DNA of 64,000 nt from Schmidtea polychroa. Its lineage: Eukaryota. Of this stretch, positions 14,908 to 43,370 are shown in pieces. Where the stretch lies: contig CM097886.1 in assembly GCA_044892525.1 (NCBI GenBank), forward strand, positions 121,334,001 to 121,398,000, written 5' to 3'. The notes under the pieces are model-generated. The model saw only the letters and a program-made list of their open reading frames with translations. It made no database searches and was not told the origin of the DNA. Every line of letters begins with the position of its first letter. Positions within the stretch are counted from its first letter, which is position 1. A program made the translations under genes and the position numbers.

Positions 14908-14951
<44 letters not shown>

Positions 14952-14966: not shown

Positions 14967-14999
14967 GTAGGAGTTTTTCAACATTTATTTCAAAAATAC

Positions 15000-19955: not shown

Positions 19956-20765
19956 ATTTTTACTGTTAATCTGGCAAACTAATCTTCATTCATTTCCGGA
20001 TAAAGTCGTTACTCGATATATCAAATTTTTCTAAAGCATGGTATTGTGATGTTTGAATATTATAAGTTTTATATTTGTATGTATAATTGTTTATATCTAG
20101 AGAATTTAAGCGTGTATTAAGGAAGTTTTGTAGAACCCGATAGAGTCACATATAAAAAGTGTCGGGACAATCGGGGTACTTGTATGTAAAATAACAATTA
20201 AATAAAATTATAAATTTTATTAACAAATAAATAAAAAATACTTCAGAAAATATGATATCGGTACTTGACAGAACAATTGACTGCGAAGATCCAACACAAA
20301 CGGCAGGTTTATCTATAATAATAGAGGTGGTAGATTAAGTAAAGAATTGTTGGGGCACTACTCGGTTGACCACCCTTAGTTCAACTTTCTAGCCTAGGGG
20401 ATGAACGCCCGTTACGATTATACCTGTCATTACTGTGTCACCCCGAGCAGGGCCCGTACATAATCTATACTCCAACATAGCACCCGTGAATTGCTTCACG
20501 TTGGAACTGTGCTATGATGGCGAGGTGCCAGTGAGCAGGTGAGCCACCTCCTTCGGACTACTCCTCACTGAGACCCCGACTTCCTAACCCTGACTGCCGA
20601 TAGAAGGACTTACGTCTACACATTCTGTCACCCTGTCGCCATACCCTTGGTTTGGATTGCAAATTGAACAATACTCCTCGAATCTCAAAAACCTCAATGC
20701 TATTTACCACTCAATGTTAAATCCCTTATGAACGAAAAACAAAACCCGTATACAGACAAAAATTG

Positions 20766-20771
20766 TTTATT
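20766..20771 (-). terminator. Candidate polyadenylation signal AATAAA in the LTR
   Basis: tttatt on plus, ~130 nt downstream of the LTR ORF stop and ~420 nt from the LTR end. Confidence 0.55.
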
Positions 20772-20901
20772 TCAAACATTGCAATACAGGCGCGTCGTAA
20801 TTTATACATCAGAATTAGAATAAGAGAAAACACAAGGACAGGAAACGATATTAGTTGATTCAGGACTCTCCGACGGATGAGGTCATCTCACGGGAAAATC
20901 C

Positions 20902-21651
20902 TCATTTTTCCCACTCGGAGTCGGCGAGTAACTCGTCCAAATCGAAGAATTCGGAGGCGTTTTCCTCCCACGTCACCCCAGCGGCAGATATGATCCGCCC
21001 TAGTGTTCTTGTTGTTAGGTCAATTACAGCAGGGACGTTATTGACATTACTCCCGAGGTCCGGCAGTTGCTTGGGCTGCTTCGCAGCTATTCGCTCACGC
21101 TGTTTCCTTTTGCGTTCAGCCCTTGATAGCTGCCGACGCTTTGGCTTGTTGGTCGATGAATTGTTTGGGGCTACCGCCGATGTAGAGGCGACGTTAGGCA
21201 GTACCCGACTATTTCCAACAAAAACCACCTCTAGTTGCTCTGGCGAGAGTTGTGTTTCTACGCACGGCCGGCAAGGTTTTTTCGAAGGGAGCGACGATTT
21301 GGCAGAAGTATTATGGTGGGCCGGAAAGAGATTGTCGGCTTCACCGATGGGAATTTTCACTATCTTTCTAGTTGGCGCGGCCTGGATGTACACTTTATGC
21401 AGCGCCTCGGACTGCTCCTTGATCAAACTTCTTTGGGCACGACTCTCGGAGATTAGAGCGTCCCGGCAATGTTCACTTCGGTGTAATTTCTTTTGGGTCT
21501 CTTTCATCTGGGCGGGACTAAACCATGTCCCCTCTAACTCGTCTATCTTCTTTTTGTACCGTCCGATCTGGGTCTGCAGGTCCTTGATTATCGCGTTCTT
21601 GTCGGAACAAGAAAAACAGGGTCTGAGGACGGTTTTTGCAGTGGGTAACAT
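20902..21651 (-). CDS. LTR-encoded 249-aa protein (coiled coil, basic NLS-like patch, acidic-aromatic tail)
   Basis: ATG-to-stop ORF intact in both LTRs, in a GC-rich island; KPKRRQLSRAERKRKQRER; C-terminus EENASEFFDLDELLADSEWEK. Confidence 0.7.
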   Translation of the reverse strand: MLPTAKTVLRPCFSCSDKNAIIKDLQTQIGRYKKKIDELEGTWFSPAQMKETQKKLHRSEHCRDALISESRAQRSLIKEQSEALHKVYIQAAPTRKIVKIPIGEADNLFPAHHNTSAKSSLPSKKPCRPCVETQLSPEQLEVVFVGNSRVLPNVASTSAVAPNNSSTNKPKRRQLSRAERKRKQRERIAAKQPKQLPDLGSNVNNVPAVIDLTTRTLGRIISAAGVTWEENASEFFDLDELLADSEWEK

Positions 21652-24358
21652 GTCTGCTAGCTAAGAAGAATAATAACACTAAATGGGATAGATCAAATTT
21701 AGAAAATCATCATTTTTCGCCACCATTCGTTAATCAATATTAGACATTTTTACAGGAAAAGAAAAACGGATTATTTATCAAGAGGGATTTCCTATGCCAT
21801 CAACCTATGCGTACTCTGGGTGTTTATTCACTAGAAAATCAACTGATAACATTAGGCTTTACTTAACGAAGGTTGTACATCATTGTTAAAGAAAATGAAA
21901 ATTACATGTTTAAGAGGAATTATTGATGACGGAAATTTTTCTTGAAGAGGGTAAATAGCATTGAAAATTCAACCCGAACTAAATAATTACTAAGTGAAAA
22001 TTTAGCTAATCATTATAATGATTTTATAGATAATTAGATAAGTTGGTTTTAATTCATCATTAAGTAAAAATATTAAATTTTTGCAGTTCCAGTAATAGAC
22101 TTGGATTAATTGAGTTGCATTTTGTTTGTATTTTATTTAGGCTTTCGATTATATTGTCTATAATTTATTATAATTTTGTTTTCAAATCTCACATTTATTT
22201 ACTATTTTAAAATTAATTATTGAGTTGTTGGTGACTCGTGTTATCATCACTCATGTCTAGTGCTTTCGGTAAATAGCCGAGATTTTTATCTGACACACCC
22301 GGTGGACTTTTCTCAAGTTAGCCGTTCGCGGTAAAATATCTACTATCGGGTTAGATGACTATGCAATCTCAAGGAACGTATCACCTGGAAGATAGACTCG
22401 TAGAATTATGGCTAGTGATATCCGTGTTATTATTGGTGAGCACCAGCATGTGGACTTTGGCTATTAGAACTTGCAATGTGTGCATTTACACATGTGTGCG
22501 GGTACTCACTTCGTGAGACTCTTATCCTTTTGGCAGCTTGCATGAATCATCAGATGTTATATTACACCGTGTTGAATTTCTATCTCTCGTGGAAATTTTG
22601 CATAGGCAGATTTTGCGTACCGCTATTACTGGATGTAATTCGTTTCGTAGACAAACTGGTCAACTATTCAAGCTATAATTTCTACTCCCCTCATGGATTT
22701 TATCATCATCAACATGCCCACTGTCTATATCGAGTTGGAAATTTATTAACTATCGCTGGAAATACAATTCGACGAAATGCGGATATTCCATCATCCTCCG
22801 TGACATCTCTAAGACTCGGATTTTATTCCCATGGAGGGTCTATCGGATCAGTTACCTCCCATCCTAACTTTGCATCAGTTGCCACAAACGTTTGGTATTC
22901 GATATACAAGGGAATGACATGTTTGATTGTTTTTATAAATACATTTTTCCTGACTAGATTCATTATTATTTTATGGTTTATTATTTTTGAGAACTATTTG
23001 TTTGTCACAATTCACCACAAGTAGGTTTTTAGAGAGACGCAGCAAAGTTGATTGCACGTGATGGATATAGATGATGAAAGTAGCAGTTATGAAGATCCTT
23101 AGGCTGAAGGTTTCAGGAATAATTTCGAGTGGAATCATGAACGCAGATAATATGCTACAAATGATGTCCAGACTGATTTAACGGAAAATCCTGTATAGAT
23201 CTTCAGATGATAGTACCAATTTCAATTTGATAAAGACAATAGTATGACGCCCTCAATCACTGTGCGAACTCTCGAACAAGATTTTTCCTCATATGACTAC
23301 ACTTCCCATTGCTTGATAGTTACCATCTCTCTACAGTATTGTTCACATATTTTAGTCGCATCTTCAGCGACGGACCCGTGAGGAAGCCCCCACATTACGG
23401 CCCGAATCAGCTGCGTGATTGAAAATCGCCATGTCCACCGGCTGAGCTCCCGAAGGCACCTCATACCATGACATGGAGTTTCTCAACGCCACGTTTCTCG
23501 GAAATTTATAATCATTAAATAATAATGCATGAAAATCAATCAGGTATCGAATCGAATAAATGGTTACTCGAAATTTACGTCGATTGTTAACTGTTTGATA
23601 ATATCTCCTGGTTTCTAGATTGATTCTCGTACGTTGCTGCTGTTTACCTGTAAAGTTGGTTGTTTAACTGTAACTGTTAAAATTTATCTTACCTGTAAAG
23701 TTGGTTGTTTAACTGTAAGTTTATAATTTTTGTGTTTCCTTATATATTAATTTTTGATGTGTGCGGACCAATCAGAATTGAGTGCCGCTTAATTTTATTG
23801 CTTTAATTTATTTTTCTTGTTTTTGAGTTATTTTTTCCTATTTTCTTTATTTTTATTGTGTTTTTTATTTATTTTCTTTAATTTCTTTATTATTTACTAC
23901 ATTTTACGTTATTTTTTGTCATTCTATTGTCCTATTTCAATTTTCCTTATTTTTATATTTTTTGTTTTAACTCTTATTTTCTAATTTTTTATTTTTCTTA
24001 TATCCTATTCTATTTTATTCTTAAATTTGTTTTGTTTTATTTTTATTTTAATTTAATTATGTTTAACCTAATTTCTTGGATACCCTTCGACTCAGCCCAA
24101 CAAATCACTCGGGGACCCATCAAAATTGCGTCCCGCAATTGCATACTAAATTTATTTCGTACATTCCACCAAAGCTAAAAATAAAAATAAATAACAAAAT
24201 GGTACAACATAAAATTTATTAATAAGATGTAGGTCAAACCAAGACCAAGCAGTCATCACTTATGGTGATGGTTTATATACAAAGCAAAATTTCACAATGT
24301 AATGTTTAGTTCAGTTATGGTATTGTTCGATTATTCTGATGGTTTTGGTTGGAGTTTG

Positions 24359-24979
24359 TTACTGCGGTTGAGAATGGATATTATGGTAGGCTTGACGACT
24401 GGATGATGGTTGAGGAGATTCTTTGTTGGCTAATCTGGGTGGGCTTGTGGTTTGGATAGCATTGGCGAGTTCGACTGAGTTTTGTATGGGGGCTCTCGAT
24501 TTCGAGCTCTGACGATTTTTCTTAACTTCGAGGATTTTCAGGAGGGTTACGAGACATAGTAAGATAGTTTCTGCGATCACTACGTAGAGAAGGTAGTGGG
24601 TGTCGCTGTTATTAGAGGGGTTTTCTGCGGTCTCTGCAGGGTTTTCGAACATTTCTTGTTGCACTTGTTGTTCCAGCTGATCGAAGTGTTGGATTTGTTC
24701 GAGTATTTTCTTGTCTATCATTCGGCATATAGGACTATTCTGGCATAGACTTCTGATATTATTAACATATGACCGAGCCGATTGGATATTATGGAGGAGG
24801 TTGGTTTTTATTGTACTGGGGTATTTGCATTGGCAAGGGTCTGATTTGGCTTTTTGATTCCGATTGCGGTGGTCTCGTATGCTTGTTGGTTGGGCATTTA
24901 ATGGTTGTTTCTCCATCAGGTGATTTATCAATACCATTACTGTTATTGTCATACCATACCACATTGTACTAATATACAT
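24359..24979 (-). CDS. Small putative type-I membrane protein (cargo ORF)
   Basis: N-terminal hydrophobic segment, CQC...C...C, TM YLLYVVIAETILLCLVTLL, basic/Ser-Pro tail; AATAAA downstream near 24215. Confidence 0.6.
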   Translation of the reverse strand: MYISTMWYGMTITVMVLINHLMEKQPLNAQPTSIRDHRNRNQKAKSDPCQCKYPSTIKTNLLHNIQSARSYVNNIRSLCQNSPICRMIDKKILEQIQHFDQLEQQVQQEMFENPAETAENPSNNSDTHYLLYVVIAETILLCLVTLLKILEVKKNRQSSKSRAPIQNSVELANAIQTTSPPRLANKESPQPSSSRQAYHNIHSQPQ

Positions 24980-25018
24980 TTATTATTATTATATTATTTA
25001 CACTGGCTTTAATGGCTT

Positions 25019-25729
25019 TTAGTTAAACGGTTCTGCTTTGGGATTATTTTCGGCGGTTCTCATCAGGGTAGACTCCGCTTTAATGACCCTGTGTCTCAAC
25101 TCGGGCAGCATTTCCAATTGTCTGTCCTTTTCACGGGCCTCCCTTTTCATGTGTCTTATCTCCTTTTCCAATCTTCTAATTTCTTCCCGTTTTTTATCGA
25201 GATTCTTTTTTAGTTCGATTTGTAGGAAATCTTGTTCGTTTTCTTGCGAAAGGTTTCGTTGTTGTTGTTGTTGCTTTTTCTCGATCTCTTGGTATTTGCG
25301 AATCCATTTCTTCATTTCCTCACTTTCTCGTTGTTTTTCCTCCAATTGTCGATTTAATTTATTTATGGTTATTTGGCGTTCTTTCGCTTCTGTTTTCCAG
25401 TAGTCTTGGATTACTTCTTCTGCTTTGAAGCTTGCCCTCTCTTGCCATAATTCCTCTGCAATCTTTTCCCAATTTCTCCCTCGCTTTCGTTGTTCCTGTA
25501 ACCATTCATTCTCCCCCTCAACTTCTTTCTTTACTTCTCCCAATACTTTGCATTCTTTCTTTAGTATTTTTATTATTTTTCGGTCTTCTATGTATTTGTT
25601 TATTAATCTCCCATTTTCCCGTTTCTCTTCTCGTAGCTTTTCCTTTAATATTTGCGTTTCTATAGTTTCCACTTCAATCTCTCCTTCTTCCAGTTCATTC
25701 GTGAGTTCTATTATTTCTTCAATCTTCAT
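25019..25729 (-). CDS. Coiled-coil protein (cargo ORF, 236 aa)
   Basis: E/K/R/Q-rich heptads throughout; ATG start. Confidence 0.7.
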   Translation of the reverse strand: MKIEEIIELTNELEEGEIEVETIETQILKEKLREEKRENGRLINKYIEDRKIIKILKKECKVLGEVKKEVEGENEWLQEQRKRGRNWEKIAEELWQERASFKAEEVIQDYWKTEAKERQITINKLNRQLEEKQRESEEMKKWIRKYQEIEKKQQQQQRNLSQENEQDFLQIELKKNLDKKREEIRRLEKEIRHMKREAREKDRQLEMLPELRHRVIKAESTLMRTAENNPKAEPFN

Positions 25730-25897
25730 GTCTATAATATTTATAATTAATCATGCGCTACAATGCGGCTTATACTTATACATTTATATCATTTTTATTT
25801 ACACAGGGTTACAGTACCTCAATTTTATACTATTAATTTTTTTGTTGGGATACAGTTCCCATTTTTTTTTTTTTATATTTTTGTTTTTTGACTTGGA

Positions 25898-26857
25898 CTA
25901 CACAAATGACTCTTCCTGACCCCAGTATCCCTCGTCGCTTTCTACTGCTAGGTTCAGGTGGATTGCTATAGGATCGTGTGGTGTATAATGGTGGGTTAGT
26001 TGAGCCCTTAGCTCGTATACCTCATCTCTTAGAGCTCGAGTGATATTCAGCTCCTCATCGAGTAGGTAGGTGAGGTATCTCGTCTCATCGTCTTTTGCCT
26101 CTAATTGCTTGCCTAACTCTTTAATCTTTTCATCGCCCTTCCACTTTTCAATCTCTATCTCCAGATTTTTGAGATTTTCATTATACATTTTTCTTTCATT
26201 TTCCAGCTTTCTATTTTTCCCTGTCAGCACCATGTTTCGCTGTTCCAGGGCCCCTTGGTATCCATTGACATCTCGTTCTAGCTCGGCGACTTTATTTACT
26301 AATTCTACTACTCGTCCCGATTGCTGAACTATCATTTCTTCCATTGCTGCATTCTCGTGCTCTTTTATGGAGATTTTCATGGCTAAGTGTCTTTCAAATC
26401 CCATGGCTTTGGTCTGCCATGTTTGGCTTCGGGCCGCTATCTTCCTTAGCCGCTTTAGTTCTTCTTTTATGACTAGATTCTCTTCCCATTTGCCTTGTTC
26501 GCTCTCATATTCTAATCTCATAGGCAATTCCTTCATTTCCTTCTTTATCTCTCTGCTCTGTCGCTTCCATTTCCTGGCTTCTGCCAATAGGTGATTCATT
26601 TTCCTTCCTTCCTTTTGTTTTTCTGCTTCTCGTTTTGTGTTCTCGTCAGTCAATCGTTTTCGTGCCTCTTGCACTAATTGTTTTCGGTAGTGACTGTGTG
26701 CTTCCTGGCGTGTGTTTTCTAGCGACGCCCACTTGGAGGCTCTTTTACATGCTTCTGCTTCGATTCTTAAGTTGTTCACTAGCCATCGATATCTACTACT
26801 CTCGTCTTCTCTGGCTTCTTCGATGTGATTGCGGGTTAGGTTGGTCAATTGGAACAT
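25898..26857 (-). CDS. Coiled-coil protein (cargo ORF, 319 aa)
   Basis: Long heptad-rich ORF; AATAAA at 25794-25799 (minus). Confidence 0.7.
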   Translation of the reverse strand: MFQLTNLTRNHIEEAREDESSRYRWLVNNLRIEAEACKRASKWASLENTRQEAHSHYRKQLVQEARKRLTDENTKREAEKQKEGRKMNHLLAEARKWKRQSREIKKEMKELPMRLEYESEQGKWEENLVIKEELKRLRKIAARSQTWQTKAMGFERHLAMKISIKEHENAAMEEMIVQQSGRVVELVNKVAELERDVNGYQGALEQRNMVLTGKNRKLENERKMYNENLKNLEIEIEKWKGDEKIKELGKQLEAKDDETRYLTYLLDEELNITRALRDEVYELRAQLTHHYTPHDPIAIHLNLAVESDEGYWGQEESFV

Positions 26858-27146: not shown

Positions 27147-28553
27147 CTACTCGGTTCTGCTCTTTCCCTCCTTCCTCACTGTCATCTTGATATATACGGT
27201 ATCATTTCTCGCCATATCCTCTATCTTTTGTTGTAAAATGAATGTAGGTGCTCCTGTTGCTGCTCCTTCTTCTTCAAGGGGTCTTTGGTTGGCTAGTTGA
27301 TTTCCCGTGGTCTTGAAACTTTGTTCGTGGATACTTTGGTCATTCATTATTGGGATATCGATTTTTGCCTGGAACGGCCATTCTATTATTTCGTCGTGCT
27401 CCCCTTTACATACTAAGAAGAAGATCGAAAAGTGTGTATCCAACCCGGTTCCATCTCCGTTAGGATATATCTTCATTTTCATTTTGTATCCGTTCTTCCA
27501 TGAGAGGAATGCGGGACTGGTTATTCTGGTATCTTCTCCGATTTTTGCTCTTCGTATCTTTTCTTTCACTCCCGTAATTTTCCATATGTAAGGTGCGGTT
27601 GGTAGTATTTCGTTGAGATTTATCTCGGTTATTTTTTGATGTAGCACCTTGGCTTGCTCATTACTGATTTCCATTCGATTAATTTGCATTTTTATGTTTG
27701 CTCGAGCTTGTTCGAAAGCCTCTTTTTCTTCTAGTAGTTCTTTTACTAATGCCTTCAGTGAGGTTATTTCTATCTCCATTTGTTGCACTTTCTCTTCACT
27801 TTCTTGTAACGCAGTTGACCACATCTCTGCGTGAGTTATTACATTTTCTGTTAAGTGGTGTGGCAAGTCTCCTCGGTGCAGTAATTTCTGACATCCCCAT
27901 TTGCCTAGTACACATATCATTCTTTTCCTTTCGCATTCTTTTAGATGCTGGGCTATTTTTATTATTCCCCCTTTGTTGCATTCGTTCGGGCATTCACCAC
28001 AGAATTCTGCACATACCTTTTCCTCCTGGATATTGTGATGTTTGATGGTGAGATTTTTCCAAGTGTCTATTTCTCCGCAATATTCACATCTTTCCAACCT
28101 TTCCTCGCACTGGCTTTGATGTTCCTTTTCTTCGTTAGCTTGAATTAATTTCTGGCATCGCTCACACTGGCTGACTTTGTACATACATTCCCCCAGATGT
28201 TGTTTCACTTTCCATATTGATCCTTTCCATTCACATGGGGTATTTTTACATCCTAGATTAGTGTTCAACATGTCCTTTACTGCGGCTTTATCTTCATTAG
28301 TATCTTCTAAACTGGATATCAGTGTCTCTTTACATATCGGACACCACTGTGGTCGGTTTTTTATTGTTTCTTTTATACATTCTTTGCACACTCTGCATCC
28401 GCATTGGGTTTGATGGGGTTCCTTTAATAGCTTTTCACATATTCCACACGTGACATGTTTGTGTATTCTGATTGCTGCGGAATTTCTGACTAACTCGATA
28501 ATTTCGTTAAACTCCTCTCTTCGTTGCTTATCCATGTCTACAATTATATACAT
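27147..28553 (-). CDS. Intronless full-length TRAF-family protein carried by the retroelement
   Basis: RING CGIC...QCGCRVC...CPIC; several TRAF zinc fingers; coiled coil; MATH YIWKI...NGYKM..KIYPNGDG...THFSIFF...IEWPF. Confidence 0.92.
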   Translation of the reverse strand: MYIIVDMDKQRREEFNEIIELVRNSAAIRIHKHVTCGICEKLLKEPHQTQCGCRVCKECIKETIKNRPQWCPICKETLISSLEDTNEDKAAVKDMLNTNLGCKNTPCEWKGSIWKVKQHLGECMYKVSQCERCQKLIQANEEKEHQSQCEERLERCEYCGEIDTWKNLTIKHHNIQEEKVCAEFCGECPNECNKGGIIKIAQHLKECERKRMICVLGKWGCQKLLHRGDLPHHLTENVITHAEMWSTALQESEEKVQQMEIEITSLKALVKELLEEKEAFEQARANIKMQINRMEISNEQAKVLHQKITEINLNEILPTAPYIWKITGVKEKIRRAKIGEDTRITSPAFLSWKNGYKMKMKIYPNGDGTGLDTHFSIFFLVCKGEHDEIIEWPFQAKIDIPIMNDQSIHEQSFKTTGNQLANQRPLEEEGAATGAPTFILQQKIEDMARNDTVYIKMTVRKEGKSRTE

Positions 28554-28618: not shown

Positions 28619-28978
28619 TTATGGTTCAGAAGAGTCGGCCTCCTGTCCGCCCTCTTCTCTGTTCATTAACCATTCTGACCAATCTTCCATTTCTTCGTAT
28701 TCTGCTTCTTCCGCCATTCCCACTAACTCTTCCTCCTGTCTCTGGCTGTATCTTGTTATCCGCTCTATTTCTCTTTGCATCTGTTCGATTATTGCCCTCT
28801 GATCCTCAATTATTTTTAAATAGCTAAATCCCTTGTTTAGACTATCAATTAGGTTTCTTTGCATTGTAAGTCCTTGCTCTTGTAGGTTAGATACTATTTG
28901 TGCTAGTCCCGCGCATTGTTGCTTCCACATGTCTTCGGTTGTTGTATTGCGATTTATTTCGTTATTTCTTTGCTCCAT
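28619..28978 (-). CDS. Small coiled-coil protein with acidic tail (cargo ORF, 119 aa)
   Basis: ATG ORF; TATATAAG upstream near 29065-29072; AATAAA at 28582-28587. Confidence 0.55.
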   Translation of the reverse strand: MEQRNNEINRNTTTEDMWKQQCAGLAQIVSNLQEQGLTMQRNLIDSLNKGFSYLKIIEDQRAIIEQMQREIERITRYSQRQEEELVGMAEEAEYEEMEDWSEWLMNREEGGQEADSSEP

Positions 28979-29139
28979 TCTTAATTTTTATACATTCTCA
29001 ACTTGGTTTTGTTTAATTTTATATGGTTTATTCTCCCAATCTTTATATACTAATAATACCGCGCTTATATAAAAATATGATACTGTTATATACATAAGAT
29101 ATACTTACTTTTTACAATTATATACAGTCATAACCCCTT

Positions 29140-30702
29140 TTATATTTGTGGATTTGGAGGGCACTGCATATTCCAGGCCTCCATCCACCGTTCTTGGCTC
29201 ATTTTACTGGGCCTTTTTACTTGTTGTTGAAGATTTCTGGCTCTGATCATTTCGAGTTTGTTACGCTGTTGTTTATCTCGGATTATTTTTATCGTTCCCC
29301 CCGTTATAGTTATGAACGCTCCGGTTATTATTATTCCGCTGATCCATATCATCTGCTTTACGCTGATGATCTCTGGGTTTTCATTGTTTATCACTGTACT
29401 CGTTGTTTCCGCATTTCTTTCTTTCTCTGTTTGGCTTTTCCCTTTCTCCAGCCCTCGTATTCTTGTTATTTCCTCATTGATCCCTTCTTTTGCCATTTTT
29501 TGTATTTTTTCCATTTCCTCTTCTGATACGTAATTATCTTGGTTTTTCTCATCGGTCTTCTGGCGTTTTCCTTCCTCGTCTTCTCCGTCATTGATCTTTC
29601 TTTTCTTTCCCCTTTTCCCAGGATATCGTCGGCATTCCTTTTCTGGTCTTTTTCTCACGATACAGACCGTGTATTCCTTTGGCGGTTGTTGTTGTGTTAC
29701 GTATTGTAAACAGTCTTCGCCTGGTCCTAGCCTTGAAATACATACTTTGTGTTCTTTCCTTGGTTGGAGTTGTGTTATCACTACTTCACCTCCTTTACCT
29801 AGGTGCACCTCTTTCCATTTAACTTTCGTTATTCTCTTCCCGTTTCGGTGTTGGTATGCTTCTTGTATTCCCACTTCCGTTATCGGTTCTGTGTCCTCGT
29901 TCATCAACACTAATCTCCGATATGCTCTAGACATGCATCTCCCCAGTATACACCTTTCCTTTAAATCCCACTCCTCCTTCAGGTCCCATTGTTGCTCTTG
30001 CCCTTGCTTTTTCTTTTTTTGCTTTAGCTCCTCCTCTTTGTTGTCGTGGTTCTCCGCTTCTTTAGTCTCTTTTAACGTTCTCGTCTCTCCATGGGCTGTT
30101 ACTAACTCTATCATGGTTAGGACAATTATCATTAGTATCATATTTGTTTCTATTTCTTTGTTGGTGAAAGGTAGGCATACCCTCTGTTTTCCATTATTCG
30201 GTTTTTCCTCCTCTTTCATCTTGTTTCCCGGGTTGTTTCCGTCCTTTCCCGTACCTGGGTCTTTGTTTTCCGGGTTATTCTCTTCCGGTTTTCTTTTCTC
30301 TTTATCCTCTTTTCGACCCTTTCCGTCATTATCATCGAATTTATCTCCCCCACTGTCGTTTAAAATGTCGTCCTCGACATTTATATCGTTTAATAATCTT
30401 CGGTATGCTGTTAGTACTCTGTTTCTTGCTAGTTTAGCCTCGAATTCGAACTCTTTTCTCCCGGTTGCTGCGTGTCTTTTCCGGTTCCATTCCTTTACTA
30501 GTTCTCTCAGTTGGATACGGCGGTGTTTTCCAATTCGTTGTTGTTCGTTTTGGTTTTTCGTGAATCTCAGGTCTTCTCTATTCAATACAATTAGTATGAT
30601 TTTAGGTGTCCCCCCTTTAGTTAATGTATTTTTGATCATTGCGTTTTCACCGTTCTCATAAAATTCGTTTACGTTAATCGCGTATTTATTACTTTGCGGC
30701 AC
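29140..30702 (-). CDS. Terminal polyprotein segment: ankyrin-like start, internal signal-like segment, FN3-like motif, TM helix
   Basis: In frame with the upstream ORF across a single TAG; MILMIIVLTMIELVTAHG; ITQLQPRKEHKVCI; MIWISGIIITGAFITITGG. Confidence 0.65.
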   Translation of the reverse strand: MPQSNKYAINVNEFYENGENAMIKNTLTKGGTPKIILIVLNREDLRFTKNQNEQQRIGKHRRIQLRELVKEWNRKRHAATGRKEFEFEAKLARNRVLTAYRRLLNDINVEDDILNDSGGDKFDDNDGKGRKEDKEKRKPEENNPENKDPGTGKDGNNPGNKMKEEEKPNNGKQRVCLPFTNKEIETNMILMIIVLTMIELVTAHGETRTLKETKEAENHDNKEEELKQKKKKQGQEQQWDLKEEWDLKERCILGRCMSRAYRRLVLMNEDTEPITEVGIQEAYQHRNGKRITKVKWKEVHLGKGGEVVITQLQPRKEHKVCISRLGPGEDCLQYVTQQQPPKEYTVCIVRKRPEKECRRYPGKRGKKRKINDGEDEEGKRQKTDEKNQDNYVSEEEMEKIQKMAKEGINEEITRIRGLEKGKSQTEKERNAETTSTVINNENPEIISVKQMIWISGIIITGAFITITGGTIKIIRDKQQRNKLEMIRARNLQQQVKRPSKMSQERWMEAWNMQCPPNPQI

Positions 30703-30705: not shown

Positions 30706-31257
30706 CTATGTTAATAATAATTTCATGGCTTCTAGATTTTCCCGTACCGTATTCCACTGAAAATGAGATGTGTTTTTGCAAATATTTTCAACTTCTTCCT
30801 TTGTCGCATTTTTGCATATGAACCTGATCATTTCTAGGTTCGGCTGTATGGTTGCCCAGTCCATTGTGGAGTTTCCTTCGGTTGACTTTTCATCTAGTCT
30901 TGATCCTGATTGATGTAGTATATGGAGTGTTTTTGGGTGTATTTTCGTTATAGCTGCATACATCATGGCGGTTTCGCCTTGTTCGTTTTTCGTGTTGGTT
31001 TCCTCGCCCAAATCTCTGAGGATTCTTATTATCGTTATTGCTCGGTTTTCCTTTGCTGCTAATATTGTTTGATCCCTTGCGTATGTGTGTACGGTCTTTA
31101 TTTTTTTAGCCAATATCATTTCGTCTGATAACTCTAGCATTTCCTCAAAGAATACTTCTTTCGCTTTGCGTATTATTGTTTCTTGATCTAAATTTCTTGG
31201 TTTCGTTTTGATGACGTTATTCGCTGCAATTTGATTCGTTTGCGACTTCGGTTCTTT
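30706..31257 (-). CDS. Ankyrin-repeat segment, in-frame continuation of pol after a single TGA
   Basis: EQGETAMMYAA, TEGNSTMDWAT; 39 open codons link the TGA at 31258-31260 to the ATG at 31140. Confidence 0.75.
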   Translation of the reverse strand, partial: KEPKSQTNQIAANNVIKTKPRNLDQETIIRKAKEVFFEEMLELSDEMILAKKIKTVHTYARDQTILAAKENRAITIIRILRDLGEETNTKNEQGETAMMYAAITKIHPKTLHILHQSGSRLDEKSTEGNSTMDWATIQPNLEMIRFICKNATKEEVENICKNTSHFQWNTVRENLEAMKLLLT

Positions 31258-34080
31258 TCACACCCCTTTCTTTATTCTTGTTTTCTTTCCGGTTGAATTA
31301 TTGATTCGTTCTTCTGCTGTAAGTACTTGAATAATATCTAAGTAATTCTCGCGAATGTTGTTCATTGTGTCCATCATATATAATACACTTACCGTTTCCC
31401 AATATTTATTTCGTGCTTGGTTAATGAATTGGAATATTGATTTTTCGAATGTGTCAATTCGCTTTTTTAATAACTGCTCATCTTTATGATTTGTGAATTC
31501 TATCCCTCGTTCTATCAATTGTTTTGGGATTTCGAATAAATGATGCCCTTTCATGGCTTCTCTCATAAGCGTGTTTTCTCCTCTCGTGAATGCTTCGTTT
31601 ACGTTGATCATGTAGTCATTTTTGATTGGATTTCTCCATGTAATTAATATTCCGGTAATTGTTGTCAGTTTTTCTTTGATTGCTGTTAATAGGCCGTCAT
31701 GCATGTTTCCGACTTCTCGATTATCCTCATATGCTAGTAGTTCCATCAACGTCGTAAATGCTTCGGAACTTTTCCCTTCAATTGCATGATGCAGTGCGTT
31801 TTTCTGATTTCGATCTTGTGTGGTTATCTTTGATCCGGTGTCAAGTAATGCGATTATAATGTCTTTTGTTTTGCCTCTGTTCGCCGCTATCATTAATGGT
31901 GTGTAACCTTGGTTGTTTTCTTGTTCTGTTGATCTCTTGCAGTCGTGAAATGCTTCTATTGTTTCTAGTATTTGTTCGTTGTTACCTACTTTCATGAGTT
32001 TATGTAATGGTGTGTCTCCATAATGATCTGTTATGGTAAATAATATTGGCCATTGACTTTTAACTACTCGTAGCAACGGATGTGTCCTCTCTCTGTTTGC
32101 ATAGTTTTCGATCATAGTCAGTAGACCTCCTAATATTTCGAAGTCTAGTCTATCTTTCGCCCATCCGGGTATTTTAATTTTTACCTCTTTTACGATCTTT
32201 TCAGCTTCCGATGGTTGGATACCTAATCGTCCAGTCGTTGGTTCTGCGAGTTGCTGCATCATGTTCATTCTGTAGGTTTGCGAACGTGTAGTTAACGTAC
32301 GGCCTTCTGGTTGACTGGTGGCTGTTTTTGGGATTGGTTTACATCGTGCCACATTTACGTATATTGGCCTGGTGAACGGGTTATTTACCAATTTTACTCT
32401 TACGTTCGTTTCTCCCACAAATAAGATCTCATATGGTCCCTTTCCGTTCCGTCGCAACTTTTTAGTGGTTCCTGGAATCAGTTCTGGTGTTTCTATCATT
32501 ACCCAATCACCTGTTTGAAAAGTATGTTGCTTCACGTTTTTCTTTCGATCGTGCAATTCTTTATAACTTTCCTGGTAGAACTTGATGTTTAATCCCGCAG
32601 TTTCCCAAATTTCCTGCATTCTTTCCTTGAATTTTGTGACATAATCGTCTATCTCCATATATTGCGATATTGGTGGTTGATATTCTAGGTCCATTGGCAT
32701 GTTACATTCTCTTCCGTACATTAATTTAAATGGGCTCATTTTCGTTGATGCATGAATTGACATTCTATAAGCCATAAGGCATAGGTTTATATATTCGTCC
32801 CAATCTCGTTGGTGACGGTCGACGTAATTTGACAACATTTGGATAAGTGTTCCGTTAAATCTTTCTGTCATCCCGTTGGTTTGAGGGTGATACGGTGATG
32901 TTCTCAACTTTGCGATTTTGAAGTAATTGGTTACCTCGCTCATGATCTCACTCATGAAATTTGTGCCTTGATCCGTTAGTATTTGCTTCGGCGTTCCATA
33001 TCGGCAACATATGTCTTCTACTAAGATTTTCGCGATTGTTTTAGCTTTTTGATCTGGTATAGCGAATGCCTCTGGGAATTTTGTGAGGTAATCCGTAATT
33101 ACCAAAATATAAATATTTCCTTTATCCGATTCGGGTAATGGACCAACTACGTCCATTGATATCATTGTCATTGGTTCTATTGGTACCGGCATTGGCGTTA
33201 AAGGTGCTTTCCATTTCGATCCAGTGTTTTTCCTTGTTGCACAGGTTAGGCAATTTTTCACCCATTCCGTTACGTCTTCTGTTAGGGTGGGCCAGAAACA
33301 TTTCTGTTTCATTCTCGCTAACGTCTTTTTTGATGACATGTGTCCTCCCAATCTTCCGTCGTGATATTGCGTTAGTAGCTCTTTTCGTCTGTTTTCCGGT
33401 ATGCACATTAATCGCTTTTCTCCATCCATTATTAGTAACCAATCTTTCTCGATAATGTATCGGTGTCGATGTTTATCCATATGTTCTTTTAATTTTTGGT
33501 CTTTCCCATACACTTCGGTTTTTCCGGTTTTTACATAATCGATAATCTGTTTCAGTTCTGGGTCTTCTTGTTGGTCCTTTCGCAGTTGGCAAAAATCCAA
33601 ATCTTCCGCTACTATTAAGCATATGCGTTGCATTTCTGAATCTACCAAATCTGGAAAAATAGACCTCGACATACAATCGGCGTTGGCGTTTGCTCTTCCT
33701 GCTTTGAATTTTATAAATGGAGAGTATTCTTGCAATTGCATGGCCCATCTCATTAGTCTACTTGACGCTTCTTTATGTTGCCCTAACCACACCAATGGTT
33801 GATGATCTGTGGTTATGCATATCTCATGTCCCCATAGTAAATATCGGAAGTGTTTGATGGCTTGTATTATGGCCAGTGCTTCTCTTTCGGTTACCGAATA
33901 GTTTTTCTCATGCTTTTTGAACGTTCGACTGTAATATCCGATGACTCTCTCTTTTCCTTCGTCATCCAGTTGCCCTAAAATCGCTCCTGCTGCATATCCG
34001 CTTGCGTCCGTTGCCGATAGAAATGGCTTCTTAAAATCTGGGTGTACGAGGATTGGTGCTTCAATCAATTTATCTCTCAA
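31258..34080 (-). CDS. pol: Pol 3' part: RNase H, integrase (HHCC, DDE, GPY/F) and ankyrin repeats
   Basis: ATDASG, TDHQPL, YHD...GH...CLTC, SMDVVGP, TDQGTNF, ERFNGTL, GKGPYEI, then GDTPLH, GYTPLMIAA, KNALHHAI. Confidence 0.95.
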   Translation of the reverse strand: MRDKLIEAPILVHPDFKKPFLSATDASGYAAGAILGQLDDEGKERVIGYYSRTFKKHEKNYSVTEREALAIIQAIKHFRYLLWGHEICITTDHQPLVWLGQHKEASSRLMRWAMQLQEYSPFIKFKAGRANANADCMSRSIFPDLVDSEMQRICLIVAEDLDFCQLRKDQQEDPELKQIIDYVKTGKTEVYGKDQKLKEHMDKHRHRYIIEKDWLLIMDGEKRLMCIPENRRKELLTQYHDGRLGGHMSSKKTLARMKQKCFWPTLTEDVTEWVKNCLTCATRKNTGSKWKAPLTPMPVPIEPMTMISMDVVGPLPESDKGNIYILVITDYLTKFPEAFAIPDQKAKTIAKILVEDICCRYGTPKQILTDQGTNFMSEIMSEVTNYFKIAKLRTSPYHPQTNGMTERFNGTLIQMLSNYVDRHQRDWDEYINLCLMAYRMSIHASTKMSPFKLMYGRECNMPMDLEYQPPISQYMEIDDYVTKFKERMQEIWETAGLNIKFYQESYKELHDRKKNVKQHTFQTGDWVMIETPELIPGTTKKLRRNGKGPYEILFVGETNVRVKLVNNPFTRPIYVNVARCKPIPKTATSQPEGRTLTTRSQTYRMNMMQQLAEPTTGRLGIQPSEAEKIVKEVKIKIPGWAKDRLDFEILGGLLTMIENYANRERTHPLLRVVKSQWPILFTITDHYGDTPLHKLMKVGNNEQILETIEAFHDCKRSTEQENNQGYTPLMIAANRGKTKDIIIALLDTGSKITTQDRNQKNALHHAIEGKSSEAFTTLMELLAYEDNREVGNMHDGLLTAIKEKLTTITGILITWRNPIKNDYMINVNEAFTRGENTLMREAMKGHHLFEIPKQLIERGIEFTNHKDEQLLKKRIDTFEKSIFQFINQARNKYWETVSVLYMMDTMNNIRENYLDIIQVLTAEERINNSTGKKTRIKKGV

Positions 34081-37000
34081 CGTTTCGAATGCCTCCTGTT
34101 GTTCTTTTCCCCCAAGTGAACGAGATATCTTTTTTCACTAACTCTTGGATTGGTTTTGCAATTCCTGCATAATTTTTGATGAATTTTCGATAGTATCCAC
34201 ATAATCCTAGGAACTCTTGCACTTGCGTAACGGTTTTTGGTGCTGGACATGTTTTTATTTTTTCGATGTTTCTTGGATCTGACTCTTTTCCTTTGGCTGA
34301 CACTATGTGTCCTAAAAACGTGACTTTTTCTTTTGCCCAATCACATTTTGAAGGTTTGAGCTTGAGTTTCCATTGTCGCAATCGAATGAATACATTTCGG
34401 ATATCCTCCAGATGTTGTTCAAATGTTGCTGAATAGATTAGCAAATCATCAATATATACCATACATTGTTTGATTCCATGAGTGACAAAGTTCATGCACC
34501 TTTGAAATGATGCTGGAGCGTTGGTCAGTCCGAATGGCATTTTCCTGAACTGATATAGATCTCGTCCCAACGTGAAAGCGGTCTTCTCTTTGTCCTCATC
34601 TTTGACTTTAATCTGCCAGTATCCACTTTTTAAATCTAAAGAAGTAAAATATGCTGCCTCCTGCAACATGAGTAACATTTCATTAATGTCTGGCAGTGGG
34701 TAGGTATCCCTCTTGGTTACTGCGTTTAACTTTCGATAATCGATACAGAATCTTTGCGTGCCATCTTTCTTTTTCACCATGACCACTGGAAACTGCCAAG
34801 GTGAGCAACTTGGTTCGATTACTTTTGCATCTAGCATTTTTTGCACTTCTGCTTCGGCTATTTCTTTTTGCATCTCCGCTAGTTTGTATGGTCTTAATGT
34901 GATTGGAGTTTCATCTATCAGGGGGATTGCATGTAGGGTAACATCACATGTACCCAAGTCTAAATCCGAAATGGCAAATATATCTTTGTATTCTACTAAT
35001 AATCGGGGCAATTTTGTCTTTTCGGCATCTGTTAGCAACGTGCTATCTATGGTCCATAATGCGTCGTCTTTGGTTCTTTCGTTGGTCACTTTTGGTAGTT
35101 CTATATCCATCATTGGAGTCAATTTTCCCAATCTTTCATTTTCGTAAATGATTTTGTCTTCCTCTTCGAAATTCGTGATGTTGATCGGTATCACTCCTTC
35201 TTGGTTTATTGTTATTATTTCTCTAGCGAGCGGTAATTCTCGTCGCTTTTCGAATGACTTACTTGGTTCGAAAATAACTTCCCCTTCCATTCCCGTATCC
35301 ACCTTTATCTGACAGATCATCTGTGATTTTGCTGGTACGATTATTTTTTCTGGACATCTGATTACTGCATTCATTTTGCATATTCTGCCGGTTTTATCCT
35401 TTAAGCACATTGTTTGTAAGTCAATTACTACTTCTTTTAGTAGTTCTGGCATTAAATCTGTTCCGATTATGCATGGTACACTCAGTTGTGGTATCACCGC
35501 TAAATACGTTTCAATCTCGTTATCCTGGTATTTCAAGGTGGTCCACCATCTCCCGACCACGTCTACTGTTTCTTTACTGCATGCTATGATGTGGATTGTT
35601 GTTGACTCGATATCTTTCCAATACCTACTGGGAATTTGATTATTTGCTATTGCTGATACGTTAGCTCCGGTGTCTATCATAGCATTTGTTTCTTTCCCAT
35701 TGATTTGAATCATGACTGTTACTGTCGGACCTCCAGGTAAAATCATGGCGGCTATCGACCGTACATCGTCCGCTTGATCTACACTTCTGGTTCTTCTAGT
35801 TGGCGGAAAATTCATTCCTGGTTGACTTGGTAACTGTGGATACATATTTTGTGTCATGGTCAAGGCTGCTTGTTGTCCGACGATGTCCGGTGGTATATAA
35901 CTTCCGTTGGCTATCCAGGTGTTTGTCTTATCCTTCTCCCAATATGGGGCTGTTTCTATTTGTTTTTCGTTCGGGTTTCTGCTTGGATATGGGTATTTAT
36001 TATTCCCTTCATCATCGTCATCGCTATCACTGTTAGATGATTGGTTTCTAAATCTATCGAAGAACTTTGGCTTACTCTTTTTCAATTGTCTTCTCGTTGC
36101 TTCATCATACATGGTTTTTCGGAATCGTCTACCTATTTCCTCGTCTGTCCCTTTAATCTTGGTTAAGATTTTAATCAATCGCTTTATTCGATGAATATCT
36201 TTCGAGTGACCATGTAATACCATAGTTTTTGCTAAAAATGGTAGAAACCCTACTATCATTTTCCAATTTACTTTCTTTTCTCTCTTGTAAATATCAAAAC
36301 AGGCTAGCATTTGTGTCAATATTACTCTAACAATTTGAATTATGAGTATGATTCCCAATATTCCTGCTATCATTTGTCCGAATACCAAGAATCTTCCCCA
36401 CATTGCTTTCATCATATTTGACGTGGCTTGTTGGAAATGGTCTGGTGATAATAGTAACTCGTAATTTGGACCTGATTGGAAATTTGTTCCGCCGGTTATT
36501 GTAACCATACTTGACAAGATTGACTCTCGCCTGGCTGGGAAAAGTATGTTTAGCCGTGCTGTTTCTAGATCCTCTGCTGAATACATACCTCCGTTTGATA
36601 CGTCTACGGGTTTGAAGTCTTGTTCCATGGCAAGTTCTATTAATCCAAACTTCTTAGGTTCCTCCACTGGGGCCTTTACTGGTAACATTATCCATTTTCC
36701 GTCGGGTCTTTCGTACAATGGTCCGTATGCATTGGAACAGTTAAAGAGATTTGGATAGAAACCCAATGGATTCATAATTCTGGTGATTAGTTGGACAAAT
36801 CGATTTTGTCCTTTGTAACGAATTTCCAACTCATTTGCACATTTCCCCGGTGGTATGGTGGGTTTTTCCGGCATTCGTGCAAACGTCTTGGTGCATGCAT
36901 ATGTATACATCACTTCGCCCACCATTCTACCAAAATGTCCGTCTGGTAATGGGAGTGATGACATCGTATTATCAGGGTGCGTTATCGCGATTGCTAGTTT

Positions 37001-38299
37001 TGTTTTCAGTATCTCTTTATTCAATGAACAATCGTTTTGTATAAGGTCGTAATATACTTTTTGTAGCGTCGTTTGTCCGCGATGGAATAAAAAATCCATT
37101 TTGTTATTGGCGTATAGGTACAATTTGACGTCCTCCATGGCTATCTTTCCCACTGCTCTATCTATTATCTGCCTTGACATGTAGATGCCTGCGTAGTTGG
37201 TCTTGTAGACGATACTGTCGCATTTGGTGGTCTCCTTCTCTCTGATGAATCTCATACCTAGGTCTGGATCGTCTGTGATCAGTGCCGTTGGTGTTTTTTG
37301 TGTTGTGAGCCTTTTTTCTTTGGGCGATGGTGGAACTGGTTTTCCATTTCGCATTCTTATTTTTTCATTTCCGTCCTCGTCAGCTTCGTTCTCATAAATT
37401 TCTCCTTTTACTTCATTGAATAGCGCACTTTTCAACAATTGGAGTCTGCATTTTTGGGTGTTAGCTTCATATATTATGGTCGAAACCCCCGTCTTACATA
37501 CGTTTTCCGAAGCTCTACATGCCGGGTTGGTTTTCATTTGGTAATTATTAGCGTCAAATTGTGCTTCGTATTCCTTTAACTCAACTGTATATGACTCGAT
37601 TACTACTACCCCCGATATCGCCTCTCCTCTGATCGTATACGTACCTCCGTTACATGTTCCATCCGTTGATTTTACGCGTCCGGCTACATAAATGCTTTCG
37701 GTTTTAATCATTCCACTTTGCCCGTGTATCGTTACTCCGTCTCGGATCCTCATTGCTCCGGTTCTAAACAGTTCTTTGCAATCCTCTCTTTGTATGGGTA
37801 CTATTTCTTTATCCAATCCGGGTAGTATGAGAGTTGAATATGAATATTGTCCGCAGTAATACGCCAACACACGTTTTGATACTACGCACTCCTTTGCTAG
37901 CGTCCTGATGAAATCCGATTCTTGATACACGTGATATGAGACCTTTTTGTTCACGATATCTAATTTATTTGGTGAAGCTTGTCTACATTCCTCGATATCT
38001 CCCAGTGAGTTTTTATCCCTCATTATGGAATTATTGCAGTCATAGATCGTGAAACCTGTTGCTCCACTGGTGCATAACATCCATATCATCATAGTCATCA
38101 TTAACGAGTTTATTGATGCTTTCCTGCTGGCTGGATCTTTCATTGGTAATTCCCATTCTAGTTCATTCAGCAACTTTTTTAATCTGACTTGCATTGATCT
38201 TTCCTGTTCGTTTTTTCGTGGCGCTTGGATGAGTCTCTTCCATCCTCCAGCACGGATAATATGTGGTTCGATAGTATTTTCTATGATTGCCACTGTCAT
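34070..38299 (-). CDS. pol: Polyprotein segment: end of Bcl-2-like domain, chuvirus-type glycoprotein (~38120-36300), aspartic protease, reverse transcriptase; +1 insertion at ~34105-34113
   Basis: GGW motif; signal-like segment then FTIYDC; Cys pattern and TM typical of chuvirus-type G; MIDTGA (~35670); YPLP, MPFGL, YIDD (34446-34457). Removing one base from GGGGGAAAA restores FTWGKEQQEAFETLRD. Confidence 0.92.
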   Translation of the reverse strand: MTVAIIENTIEPHIIRAGGWKRLIQAPRKNEQERSMQVRLKKLLNELEWELPMKDPASRKASINSLMMTMMIWMLCTSGATGFTIYDCNNSIMRDKNSLGDIEECRQASPNKLDIVNKKVSYHVYQESDFIRTLAKECVVSKRVLAYYCGQYSYSTLILPGLDKEIVPIQREDCKELFRTGAMRIRDGVTIHGQSGMIKTESIYVAGRVKSTDGTCNGGTYTIRGEAISGVVVIESYTVELKEYEAQFDANNYQMKTNPACRASENVCKTGVSTIIYEANTQKCRLQLLKSALFNEVKGEIYENEADEDGNEKIRMRNGKPVPPSPKEKRLTTQKTPTALITDDPDLGMRFIREKETTKCDSIVYKTNYAGIYMSRQIIDRAVGKIAMEDVKLYLYANNKMDFLFHRGQTTLQKVYYDLIQNDCSLNKEILKTKLAIAITHPDNTMSSLPLPDGHFGRMVGEVMYTYACTKTFARMPEKPTIPPGKCANELEIRYKGQNRFVQLITRIMNPLGFYPNLFNCSNAYGPLYERPDGKWIMLPVKAPVEEPKKFGLIELAMEQDFKPVDVSNGGMYSAEDLETARLNILFPARRESILSSMVTITGGTNFQSGPNYELLLSPDHFQQATSNMMKAMWGRFLVFGQMIAGILGIILIIQIVRVILTQMLACFDIYKREKKVNWKMIVGFLPFLAKTMVLHGHSKDIHRIKRLIKILTKIKGTDEEIGRRFRKTMYDEATRRQLKKSKPKFFDRFRNQSSNSDSDDDDEGNNKYPYPSRNPNEKQIETAPYWEKDKTNTWIANGSYIPPDIVGQQAALTMTQNMYPQLPSQPGMNFPPTRRTRSVDQADDVRSIAAMILPGGPTVTVMIQINGKETNAMIDTGANVSAIANNQIPSRYWKDIESTTIHIIACSKETVDVVGRWWTTLKYQDNEIETYLAVIPQLSVPCIIGTDLMPELLKEVVIDLQTMCLKDKTGRICKMNAVIRCPEKIIVPAKSQMICQIKVDTGMEGEVIFEPSKSFEKRRELPLAREIITINQEGVIPINITNFEEEDKIIYENERLGKLTPMMDIELPKVTNERTKDDALWTIDSTLLTDAEKTKLPRLLVEYKDIFAISDLDLGTCDVTLHAIPLIDETPITLRPYKLAEMQKEIAEAEVQKMLDAKVIEPSCSPWQFPVVMVKKKDGTQRFCIDYRKLNAVTKRDTYPLPDINEMLLMLQEAAYFTSLDLKSGYWQIKVKDEDKEKTAFTLGRDLYQFRKMPFGLTNAPASFQRCMNFVTHGIKQCMVYIDDLLIYSATFEQHLEDIRNVFIRLRQWKLKLKPSKCDWAKEKVTFLGHIVSAKGKESDPRNIEKIKTCPAPKTVTQVQEFLGLCGYYRKFIKNYAGIAKPIQELVKKDISFTWGKRTTGGIRNVER

Positions 38300-41086: not shown

Positions 41087-43370
41087 TCATTTTATCGCTT
41101 CCTCTCTTTCTTTTCTCAATTGTATTTCGATATCCTCGTCCTCACTTTCGCTGGTTATCTCGCTTTCGCTTTCGCTTTCCTCTTTGGTTTCCCCTTTTGA
41201 CGGTTCGCCATCTTCGTTCAGCTGTAGTATTTCTCCCCCCAAACTGCTCACATAGTCTTCATCTGATGACGACGTACCTTTTGTCTCTTTCATCATGTTG
41301 ATTCGCAAATTACTCATCCTTGGTACTCGCTTTAGTTTCTTATTTTCGAATATCGTTGTTTCTTCGAATTCTAATTCTTGTAGTATTTTGTGGTTTAGGT
41401 GACTGGTTTGTTCCTGGTCTTTTTTACTATCATCTTTTGCCTCAGTTTTCGTTTTGTCATGTTCCTTTTCGATTTTGTCTTTTATCTTTTTCCAGAATAT
41501 TCTCTGAATTCTTTGGTTTCCTTTCAGTATCGTTGTTGGACCTTCCGTTCCGTTTTCTGTTGTTGTTTCTTTTACTTTTTCCGGTTCAGCCATCGGCACT
41601 ATTCTTGGGTTTTTCCCATAGTTGTAACAATATTGCTCTTTAACGTCCCTTATTAATCTCATCATATTTAGTCGTAAGGGTTGCCCTTGTCGTTGCTGGT
41701 CGCGTTCTTGTTTTATTCTCTCTTCTTCGGCCTGCAACCTTTGCCAATCCTGTGCATGTTGCTGTCTCTCGTAGTTGTTGATGTTTTCGGTGCTTCTCAT
41801 CATCCGTATATTCTGTGTTTGCTGAGGCGCCGGTTCCGGTCTTGGTCGCAGTAATTGATGCATCATCTGTTTCATTTGGGAGATTTCTTGCATGACGTTC
41901 ATTTGTTTCCCTTCACTGGGGTTACTTTGTCGTTGCGGATTCGACATATAATTATTATTCCGTTGTGGCGGTCGTTGTTGTTGGCCTCTTTCTCGGCATT
42001 CCCTAGATATATGGCCTGGTTGTCCGCAGTTAAAACATCCTCTCGTTTGGCATATATTCTCCGTATGCCCCCGTCGTCCGCAACGATTGCAATTTGCATT
42101 TCTATAACAATCTCTGTCCCAATGTCCTGATTTACCACAGGTTAGGCATTGTTTGTTGTCGTTCCCATTTCGTCGATTATTAAAATTATTCCCGTTATTT
42201 GGGTGGTTACGTTCGTTGTTATTCCCATTTGATCGTCCTTGTGGTGGTTTGAAAATTTGATGCGCTCCGGGTATGAATTGATTCATTTTTGGTTCTTGGT
42301 TATTGATATCTCCACCATCTGTTTTTACCATGGCTGTTGCTATCCTCCCATCCTCTTGCATAATATTCATTTGAGCTGGGAGGTGGAGCTCGCATCGTGT
42401 GGCCCAATCTATGGCCTCTTCCAACGTTTTACACATTTGGCATCCCACCGATGCTCTTACTTCTTCTCGGCGTAGTCCCTCTATGAAATAGCCGATCAAA
42501 TTTTCCTCTGGCAATTTCCCATTCATTGCTTTCTTTGCTAATCTCCGTAATTCACTTGCATATAATGTTATTGATTCATTGGTTCTCTGTTTTCTATTGG
42601 CTAGTTCGCCGAGTGCTTGATTTATTGGCTTGCTCGCTCCGAAAGTTTTCTTCAGAAATGTTTTGATATCTTCCCATTTATCTAATTTCGTGTCTCTCTC
42701 TTTAGCTTCTAAGTACACTTCCAATGCACTATCACATAAAAACAACGGCATTCTTTTGCTAACCGCTTCGGCTGTCCATCCACACACCGTGATATAGACC
42801 TCAAAGTTGGTTATAAACGTTGTCAATTTGTTTGCATTTCCGTTGAACAGTTCGCCTCTAAAGTTTTCTTTATACTCGTCGGTTTTTACCACATTCGTCA
42901 TGATTGGTTCTCGAGTTTCCACTGTTTCTTTTAAGTTATCTAATAACTGGGTTAGGTTATGGACGGATAGTTCTTCTGTGGATGCTGATAAACTGTTCGT
43001 GATATCTATTATACTTTCTCGGCTTTTCGCTCGCTTCGGGGTAAATTGGATTGTTGGGTTTTCTTTGTCGTCTATCAATATTCTGTTCGTCTCGTTAGGT
43101 CCTTGCGATGATCCTCTCCTGTGACGGGTTGATCTAGCTCTCTTGATGCTTTGCAGCTGATCTACTGAAAATAACGTATCGTATTGATTACTTGAGGATC
43201 GGAGTGTTCTTTGATTTGCCGTGACTTCTTCCTGTTACTCCTTTGTCTTTCCTTGGCTCCTTTCCGTTTGATCGGGTTCTGGATTGGTTATTTCTGGTTG
43301 GTTGTTGGTTTCTTCGAATTCCTTTTGCGCAGGTTCTGGATTGGCTTGCTTGACTGGATTGGTTGGATAT
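41087..43370 (-). CDS. gag: Gag (capsid-like domain and three CCHC knuckles); frame open from 43370 with one TAA at 43235-43237
   Basis: CLTCGKSGHWDRDC, CNRCGRRGHTENIC, CFNCGQPGHISREC; capsid-like FNGNANKLTTFITNFE...RKQRTNESITLYASELRRLA. Confidence 0.9.

Follow-up and report, generated by a model that had tools for sequence, protein, structure and literature searches.

The 64,000-nucleotide stretch of Schmidtea polychroa DNA analysed here (the window) contains a TRAF gene carried by a retrotransposon and, 19.7 kb away, a host TRAF gene with the same CGC motif in its RING. The locus raises the question of how the element came by its TRAF. An initial annotation had proposed capture, via mRNA, from the host lineage's own expanded TRAF family.

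The retrotransposon and its TRAF gene

The carrier of the TRAF gene is a young 29.3-kb Burro-type LTR retrotransposon, assigned by the published description of Burro. In the available text of that description, Burro (GYPSM1) elements are giant gypsy-like LTR retrotransposons of dugesiid planarians, about 30 kb long, with gag, a SUMO-like part, a mononegavirus-like env in frame before protease and reverse transcriptase, integrase and ankyrin repeats, and with apoptosis- and ubiquitin-related cargo (PMC6431247). The window element is 29,301 bp long, and all its features lie on the reverse strand. The LTRs are about 3.75 kb long and have TG...CA termini. The 5′ LTR (45893..49648) is 99.7% identical to the 3′ LTR (20348..24102), and the 4-bp target duplication GAAT is present on both sides (49649-49652 and 20344-20347); the insertion is therefore young.

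Reading from the 5′ LTR, an accessory ORF with a C-terminal RING (zf-C3HC4_3; 45072..45614) is followed by gag with zinc knuckles (41087..43234), and a tandem repeat with a 40/80-bp period lies between them (44057-44536). Pfam detected no BIR in the accessory ORF, the RING of which resembles that of a BIR-RING ORF in a second Burro family. Next come a part of the polyprotein with weak ubiquitin/SUMO-like matches (38318..41005), a mononegavirus-like fusion glycoprotein, protease and reverse transcriptase in one frame (34070..38299), and integrase with ankyrin repeats, in two frames in the window copy (30706..33753). The glycoprotein match, PF24664, precedes protease and reverse transcriptase in the same frame, which is the placement of env in Burro. 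Two ORFs without a Pfam match (28619..30639) lie directly upstream of the TRAF ORF, and three further ORFs (24359..26857) lie downstream of it. Of the cargo types of Burro, the window element has MATH, ankyrin and weak SUMO-like matches; BIR and BCL2 gave no Pfam match in the window ORFs scanned, and no tRNA was found within the 64-kb window. The polyprotein region occupies several frames in the window copy, and the second Burro family has frames of 4,791 aa; in Burro as published, one polyprotein of about 4,800 aa is described.

The second family, from the same genome, has its own CGC TRAF ORF with flanking genes as in the window family. A 119-aa ORF upstream of the window TRAF has a homologue at the equivalent place in the second family, and a 319-aa ORF downstream has one that is also downstream of TRAF. 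The env-protease-reverse transcriptase regions of the two families are 60% identical and their TRAFs 30% identical. They differ in cargo: the polyprotein of the window family lacks MATH and no BIR was detected, whereas the second family combines a polyprotein MATH domain, a full TRAF ORF and a BIR-RING protein. A MATH_TRAF_C domain has already been reported in Burro (PMC6431247): in S. mediterranea it is part of the polyprotein, and in D. tigrina an accessory ORF contains it. The available text of that report names the MATH domain alone; here a whole RING-zinc finger-coiled coil-MATH gene lies downstream of pol.

The TRAF ORF of the element (27147..28553, reverse strand) is a single uninterrupted frame of 468 aa without introns. 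Pfam placed a RING at residues 36-74 and a MATH domain at 322-459, and between them are an array of five zinc fingers and a long coiled coil. The RING letters are CGICEKLLKEPHQTQCGCRVCKEC, i.e. QTQCGCRVC, so that both the intronless frame and the QCGCRVC reading of the initial annotation hold. The predicted structure had a mean pLDDT of 90.5, and the best PDB matches to the model were TRAF1/3/2 domains. By its RING, zinc fingers, coiled coil and MATH domain the protein is a member of the TRAF family, with a RING that departs from the canonical C3HC4 form. Compared with vertebrate TRAF2/3/5/6, to which it is about 25-30% identical, it has the same domain order, zinc-ligand pattern and MATH fold; the vertebrate proteins differ in having a C3HC4 (CGH) RING, a short spacer in zinc finger 3 (ZF3) and a longer coiled coil.

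Within the RING (28332..28448, reverse strand) the ligand positions are C36, C39, C51, C53, C56, C59, C71 and C74, and C53 (window 28395-28397) occupies the site of the His in canonical TRAFs. Since Cys for His leaves eight potential zinc ligands, the domain is of the C4C4 type, a recognised RING class; the replacement would retain the fourth zinc ligand and allow the RING to fold as C4C4. Eight Cys ligands are likewise found in the CNOT4-type class, which in the available text includes a member modelled with an E2 (PMC3166285). Unlike that class, the C4C4 RING of the element derives from a TRAF RING, and no CNOT4 ancestry is implied. A further difference from canonical TRAFs is a longer spacer at the end of ZF3, H173-x7-C181 (28011..28037, reverse strand), which is common to the triclad host TRAFs.

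Host TRAF genes

The neighbouring host TRAF (6018..7412, reverse strand) belongs to an expanded intron-bearing family and comprises a RING, a reduced zinc-finger region and a MATH domain, giving 433 aa if spliced as predicted. Its RING reads SAPCGCRFC, and two phase-0 GT..AG introns of 46 and 47 nt are predicted from the sequence. The earlier description of an intron-containing palindrome TRAF reading PCGCRFC was thus confirmed, with two copies present: the mirror copy lies at 1594..2988 on the forward strand, with introns at 2203-2248 and 2417-2463. The palindrome extends past the window (window 1-3529 and 5477-13588; L204:5418-10000); its arms are about 8.1 kb long and 99.7% identical, are separated by a 1.9-kb spacer, and double a hAT transposase fragment along with the host TRAF. 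A 214-bp tandem duplication of an intron and flanking coiled-coil sequence (2154-2499 and 6507-6852) is the origin of the neighbour's two introns. Proximity to the element was considered as evidence that the neighbour was the donor and was dropped: 781 Mb of sequence contain 601 RING motifs of the element type and 231 of the expanded family, so that about 7 pairs within 20 kb are expected by chance.

Three groups of host TRAF genes were found in the genome: the expanded intron-bearing family, full-length intronless CGC genes, and two TRAF4-like CGH genes. In the expanded family, which gave 150 scored matches and 231 RING-pattern matches, RING and MATH are encoded by separate exons and the zinc-finger region is reduced. 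Cys was present at the variable site in 28 of the 30 top loci by a strict pattern (one had CSC and one locus was unmatched), and in all 43 RINGs read at 40 further host loci, 42 of them of the expanded family. One large branch of the family (L156, L160, L175 and related loci, on contigs C1 and C2) has a strongly diverged MATH domain, and the NGDG loop, otherwise conserved in MATH, is missing in L156, L160 and L175.

The full-length single-frame host genes (L091, L092, L093, L095, L096, L098, L144 and L190) are all CGC. L091, which is 71% identical to D. japonica TRAF2-like A, is the best host match of the element TRAF. Bit scores against the element TRAF reached 249 over about 450 aa for genes of this group; the two exons of the neighbour scored 49+89 bits. 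The remaining two genes bear introns, have CGH and a short ZF3 spacer, and are TRAF4-like by best match in a protein search. As they keep CGH, the CGC motif is clade-specific within this genome. A first CGH pattern search of the genome gave three matches, all of them non-TRAF RINGs, and a wider pattern matched 161 times (control: 6), with no TRAF among the 30 loci examined.

Expansion of TRAF genes in planarians has been described previously (PMC6109357, PMC8807557), and RNAi of Smed-TRAF-2A/B is reported to be lethal and to raise cell death, the genes being described as essential for the survival of cells (PMC7586133). These genes and the expanded planarian family fall in the same clade as the element TRAF. 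The available text of the three papers treats host genes and is silent on the CGC RING, on the lengthened ZF3 and on the many TRAF copies carried by elements.

Phylogenetic position and origin of the element TRAF

The claim that canonical TRAF RINGs have CGH agrees with human TRAF5 and TRAF6 (solved structures), with named fish TRAF2 and TRAF3, and with mollusc TRAF3-like homologues. In a first public protein set (n=119) the site was His in 39, Cys in 9 and another residue in 19, with 52 giving no match; the corresponding counts in a second set (n=144) were 74, 16, 17 and 37. Proteins with Cys included three from Dendrocoelum lacteum and TRAF3-like proteins from crinoid and starfish. CGC has arisen separately in echinoderms and, being homoplastic, was rejected as a clade marker on its own. 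Nearly all RINGs read in the triclad clade have it (public member P0134 has Phe). The initial annotation was therefore right that element and neighbour have CGC in common, and this indicates no special link between the two, because the whole triclad clade has it.

A long ZF3 spacer (H-x7 or more-C) was found in 16 of 16 full-length element and triclad rows and in none of the 16 other rows. A cruder pattern count, in which many rows were undetermined, found Cys with a long spacer in 14 rows, Cys with a short one in 5, His with a short one in 57 and His with a long one in 2. In those echinoderm CGC proteins whose spacer could be measured ZF3 is short, and they were placed among the outgroups. 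On the sequences compared, the long spacer is a second derived trait, which resolves the homoplasy of CGC. No named non-triclad flatworm TRAF was retrieved in the homologue and representative searches, and an Atlas search returned only generic RING/TRAF clusters.

For the trees, which used subsets of 36-63 rows, the columns of the Cys and of the insertion were taken out. Element TRAFs and triclad CGC host genes formed one clade in three trees (100/100, 99/96 and 99/100), and the two halves of the protein agreed on this placement (MATH 95/87; RING and zinc fingers 93/98). The two host CGH TRAF4-like genes fell outside the clade in the full-length tree, and the expanded family formed a clade excluding the elements (100/100). 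Element sequences themselves formed one clade with support of 98/91 (in the 99/96 tree), 95/86 (MATH) and 99/99 (in the 99/100 tree). Their monophyly was weak or absent in one quick tree, the 100/100 tree, the RING and zinc-finger tree (66/38) and a second quick tree, which had MATH-only rows. For three of the sequences, P0003, P0122 and P0131, the element-like label is based on similarity and not on genomic context. P0003, from an ENA contig, is a CGC TRAF-like sequence with apparently two degenerate MATH domains, and it grouped with element TRAFs in some trees.

Long branches and deviating composition of the elements were flagged in several trees and could draw the elements together. In the second quick tree, the host CGH genes, entered as MATH-only rows, were pulled into the triclad clade, an effect that disappeared with full-length rows. 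Attraction among planarian sequences is thus real in these data, and the quick tree with MATH-only rows, in which rows without common columns were joined, was set aside.

AU tests rejected the grouping of elements with the neighbour's subfamily (p=0.000145) and with non-triclad TRAF2/3/5 (p=0.0095). Two placements were not rejected, one with the elements outside every host CGC gene (p=0.18) and one with the elements as sister of the expanded family as a whole (p=0.48), so these tests do not show the direction of transfer. At its base, where the elements branch off, the CGC clade is a polytomy that points to no single donor gene. On these sequence comparisons the element TRAF belongs to a triclad-specific host CGC TRAF branch, maybe as a sister rather than nested within it, and the neighbour's subfamily is not its donor. 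Of the origin first proposed, membership of the host CGC clade stands: element and host CGC TRAFs group together (99/96; 99/100). The neighbour's subfamily as the source does not stand (p=0.000145). The absence of introns, taken earlier as a sign of capture via mRNA, is not diagnostic, since the full-length host CGC TRAFs are also intronless in their coding sequence, and it was rejected as proof.

The reading that we regard as probable is that the TRAF is an accessory Burro gene of the triclad C4C4 branch, kept under purifying selection, which was captured once and early and likely biases host survival or immune signalling to the benefit of the element. The single element clade and the equal TRAF neighbours in the two Burro families argue for a single capture, which likely predates the split of these families. 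Template switching during reverse transcription is the usual route by which LTR elements capture genes. By this route an early Burro ancestor would have taken up a full-length CGC TRAF transcript, from a host gene that was full-length and probably already intronless, and would have retained it as an accessory ORF; a MATH copy would have entered the polyprotein of the second family later. The host paralogue clades include Dendrocoelum genes, which together with the basal branching of the elements suggests an old event.

Flow in the other direction would require that an early Burro-like element took up a canonical TRAF, that CGC, the ZF3 insertion and intron loss arose by way of the element, and that some or all host CGC TRAFs descend from it. 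The intronless coding sequence of all full-length host CGC genes, next to the introns kept in host CGH genes, is in keeping with this, as are the two basal placements that the AU tests left standing. Against it, host genes never fell inside the sampled element clade in three trees, and the TRAF-2A/B-like host genes have short branches and an AT-rich host composition. The 10-kb surroundings of eight host stretches also contained no gag or integrase matches and a single weak match to reverse transcriptase; an LTR fragment lay near one of the genes, at a distance of about 4 kb. We consider this history unlikely. If it were nevertheless true, the TRAF2/3-type genes of triclads, among them the essential TRAF-2A/B and the hundreds of copies of the expanded family, would descend from a TRAF that had passed through a Burro-like retroelement. 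There the RING would have taken on its C4C4 form and the introns would have been lost before the gene returned to the host, and the element's own TRAF beside its IAP-type protein would be a captured TRAF-IAP survival module. If several Burro families had independently captured different triclad paralogues, which only long branches and A-rich composition then drew together in the trees, this would account for TRAFs that are no closer between the two families than to host genes, and for the four trees in which element monophyly lacked support; the common gene neighbourhood of both families and the element clade recovered in the other three trees make this distinctly improbable.

Capture of a spliced mRNA from the neighbour's own family draws on the CGC motif common to element and expanded family, and a deep sister relation to the ancestor of that family is compatible with the data (p=0.48). 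Grouping with the neighbour's subfamily was nevertheless rejected and the family forms a clade without elements; moreover, the middle zinc fingers present in the element TRAF are absent from the neighbour and from the other expanded-family members sampled, and the neighbour is only 25% and 32% identical to the element TRAF, over partial lengths. This version is very improbable, and we judge equally so a convergent origin of CGC with horizontal transfer of the TRAF from another animal. The crinoid and starfish proteins give the latter its starting point, as they have CGC; the short ZF3 of those with a measurable spacer, their position with the outgroups and the rejection of non-triclad TRAF2/3/5 as relatives (p=0.0095) all speak against it.

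Copies, selection and proposed function

A protein search gave 91 scored genome copies of the element TRAF with identities of 83-100%. The element-type RING pattern had 601 genome matches, against none in the control, a count that includes a few host genes. Whole-gene dN/dS against the window copy was 0.07-0.09 in 6 of 10 comparisons, the unsaturated ones, and C53 was invariant in all 57 distinct intact copies (41 TGC and 16 TGT codons), a sample that favours conservation as the copies were picked as intact top matches. The element TRAF, with all domains kept, is under purifying selection, and the earlier statement that no domain had been lost is borne out, dN/dS being about 0.07-0.09 where measurable. 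Reads only guessed to be RNA covered the TRAF gene in part, with a few poly-T loose ends, and were not taken as evidence of expression.

Two copies, L014 and L007, showed dS against the window TRAF that varies sharply along the gene between element subfamilies (for L014, 0.06 at the N-terminus and 1.25 in MATH), which suggests recombination between subfamilies. Others (L066:1-2823; L240:1474-2670) have the TRAF joined in frame to the upstream ORF, or an in-frame internal loss of the last zinc fingers.

The element TRAF would trimerise, binding or competing with host TRAF partners, and would act alongside the IAP-type RING or BIR-RING cargo of the element. With IAP-type cargo next to it, the protein most plausibly takes part in survival or immune signalling, as an adaptor or as a decoy; mammalian TRAF2 recruits cIAPs. 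Burro1 is expressed once PIWI silencing is lost, according to the available text (PMC8532177), and Burro has been proposed to interfere with host apoptosis and ubiquitination in an account whose available text names domains alone (PMC6431247).

Burro with its MATH domain was known before, as was the expansion of TRAF genes in planarians. In the papers searched no description was found of full-length TRAF cargo, of where it came from, or of the CGC (C4C4) RING and the lengthened ZF3, and PMC4484250 and PMC11410931 contributed nothing decisive; Grohme 2018, Jurka 2007 and supplements may note a full-length ORF. The element carries a whole host signalling adaptor, under strong selection and in hundreds of copies, since before the two Burro families split, and this adaptor is linked to the clade that includes TRAF-2A/B, for which a lethal effect of knockdown is reported. 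Whether and how a provirus-like element influences the survival of cells in an animal that regenerates could be tested on this gene. The C4C4 RING extends across a whole TRAF branch, and planarian TRAF counts may include element copies.

Elsewhere in the window, a cluster of short ORFs (12333-16406) with a TBP-like match and a weak poxvirus A32-like ATPase match is possibly a decayed DNA-virus-like or Polinton-like element, and a single-frame ORF at 17968-18408 encodes a histone fold of the NF-Y/CBF-like type.
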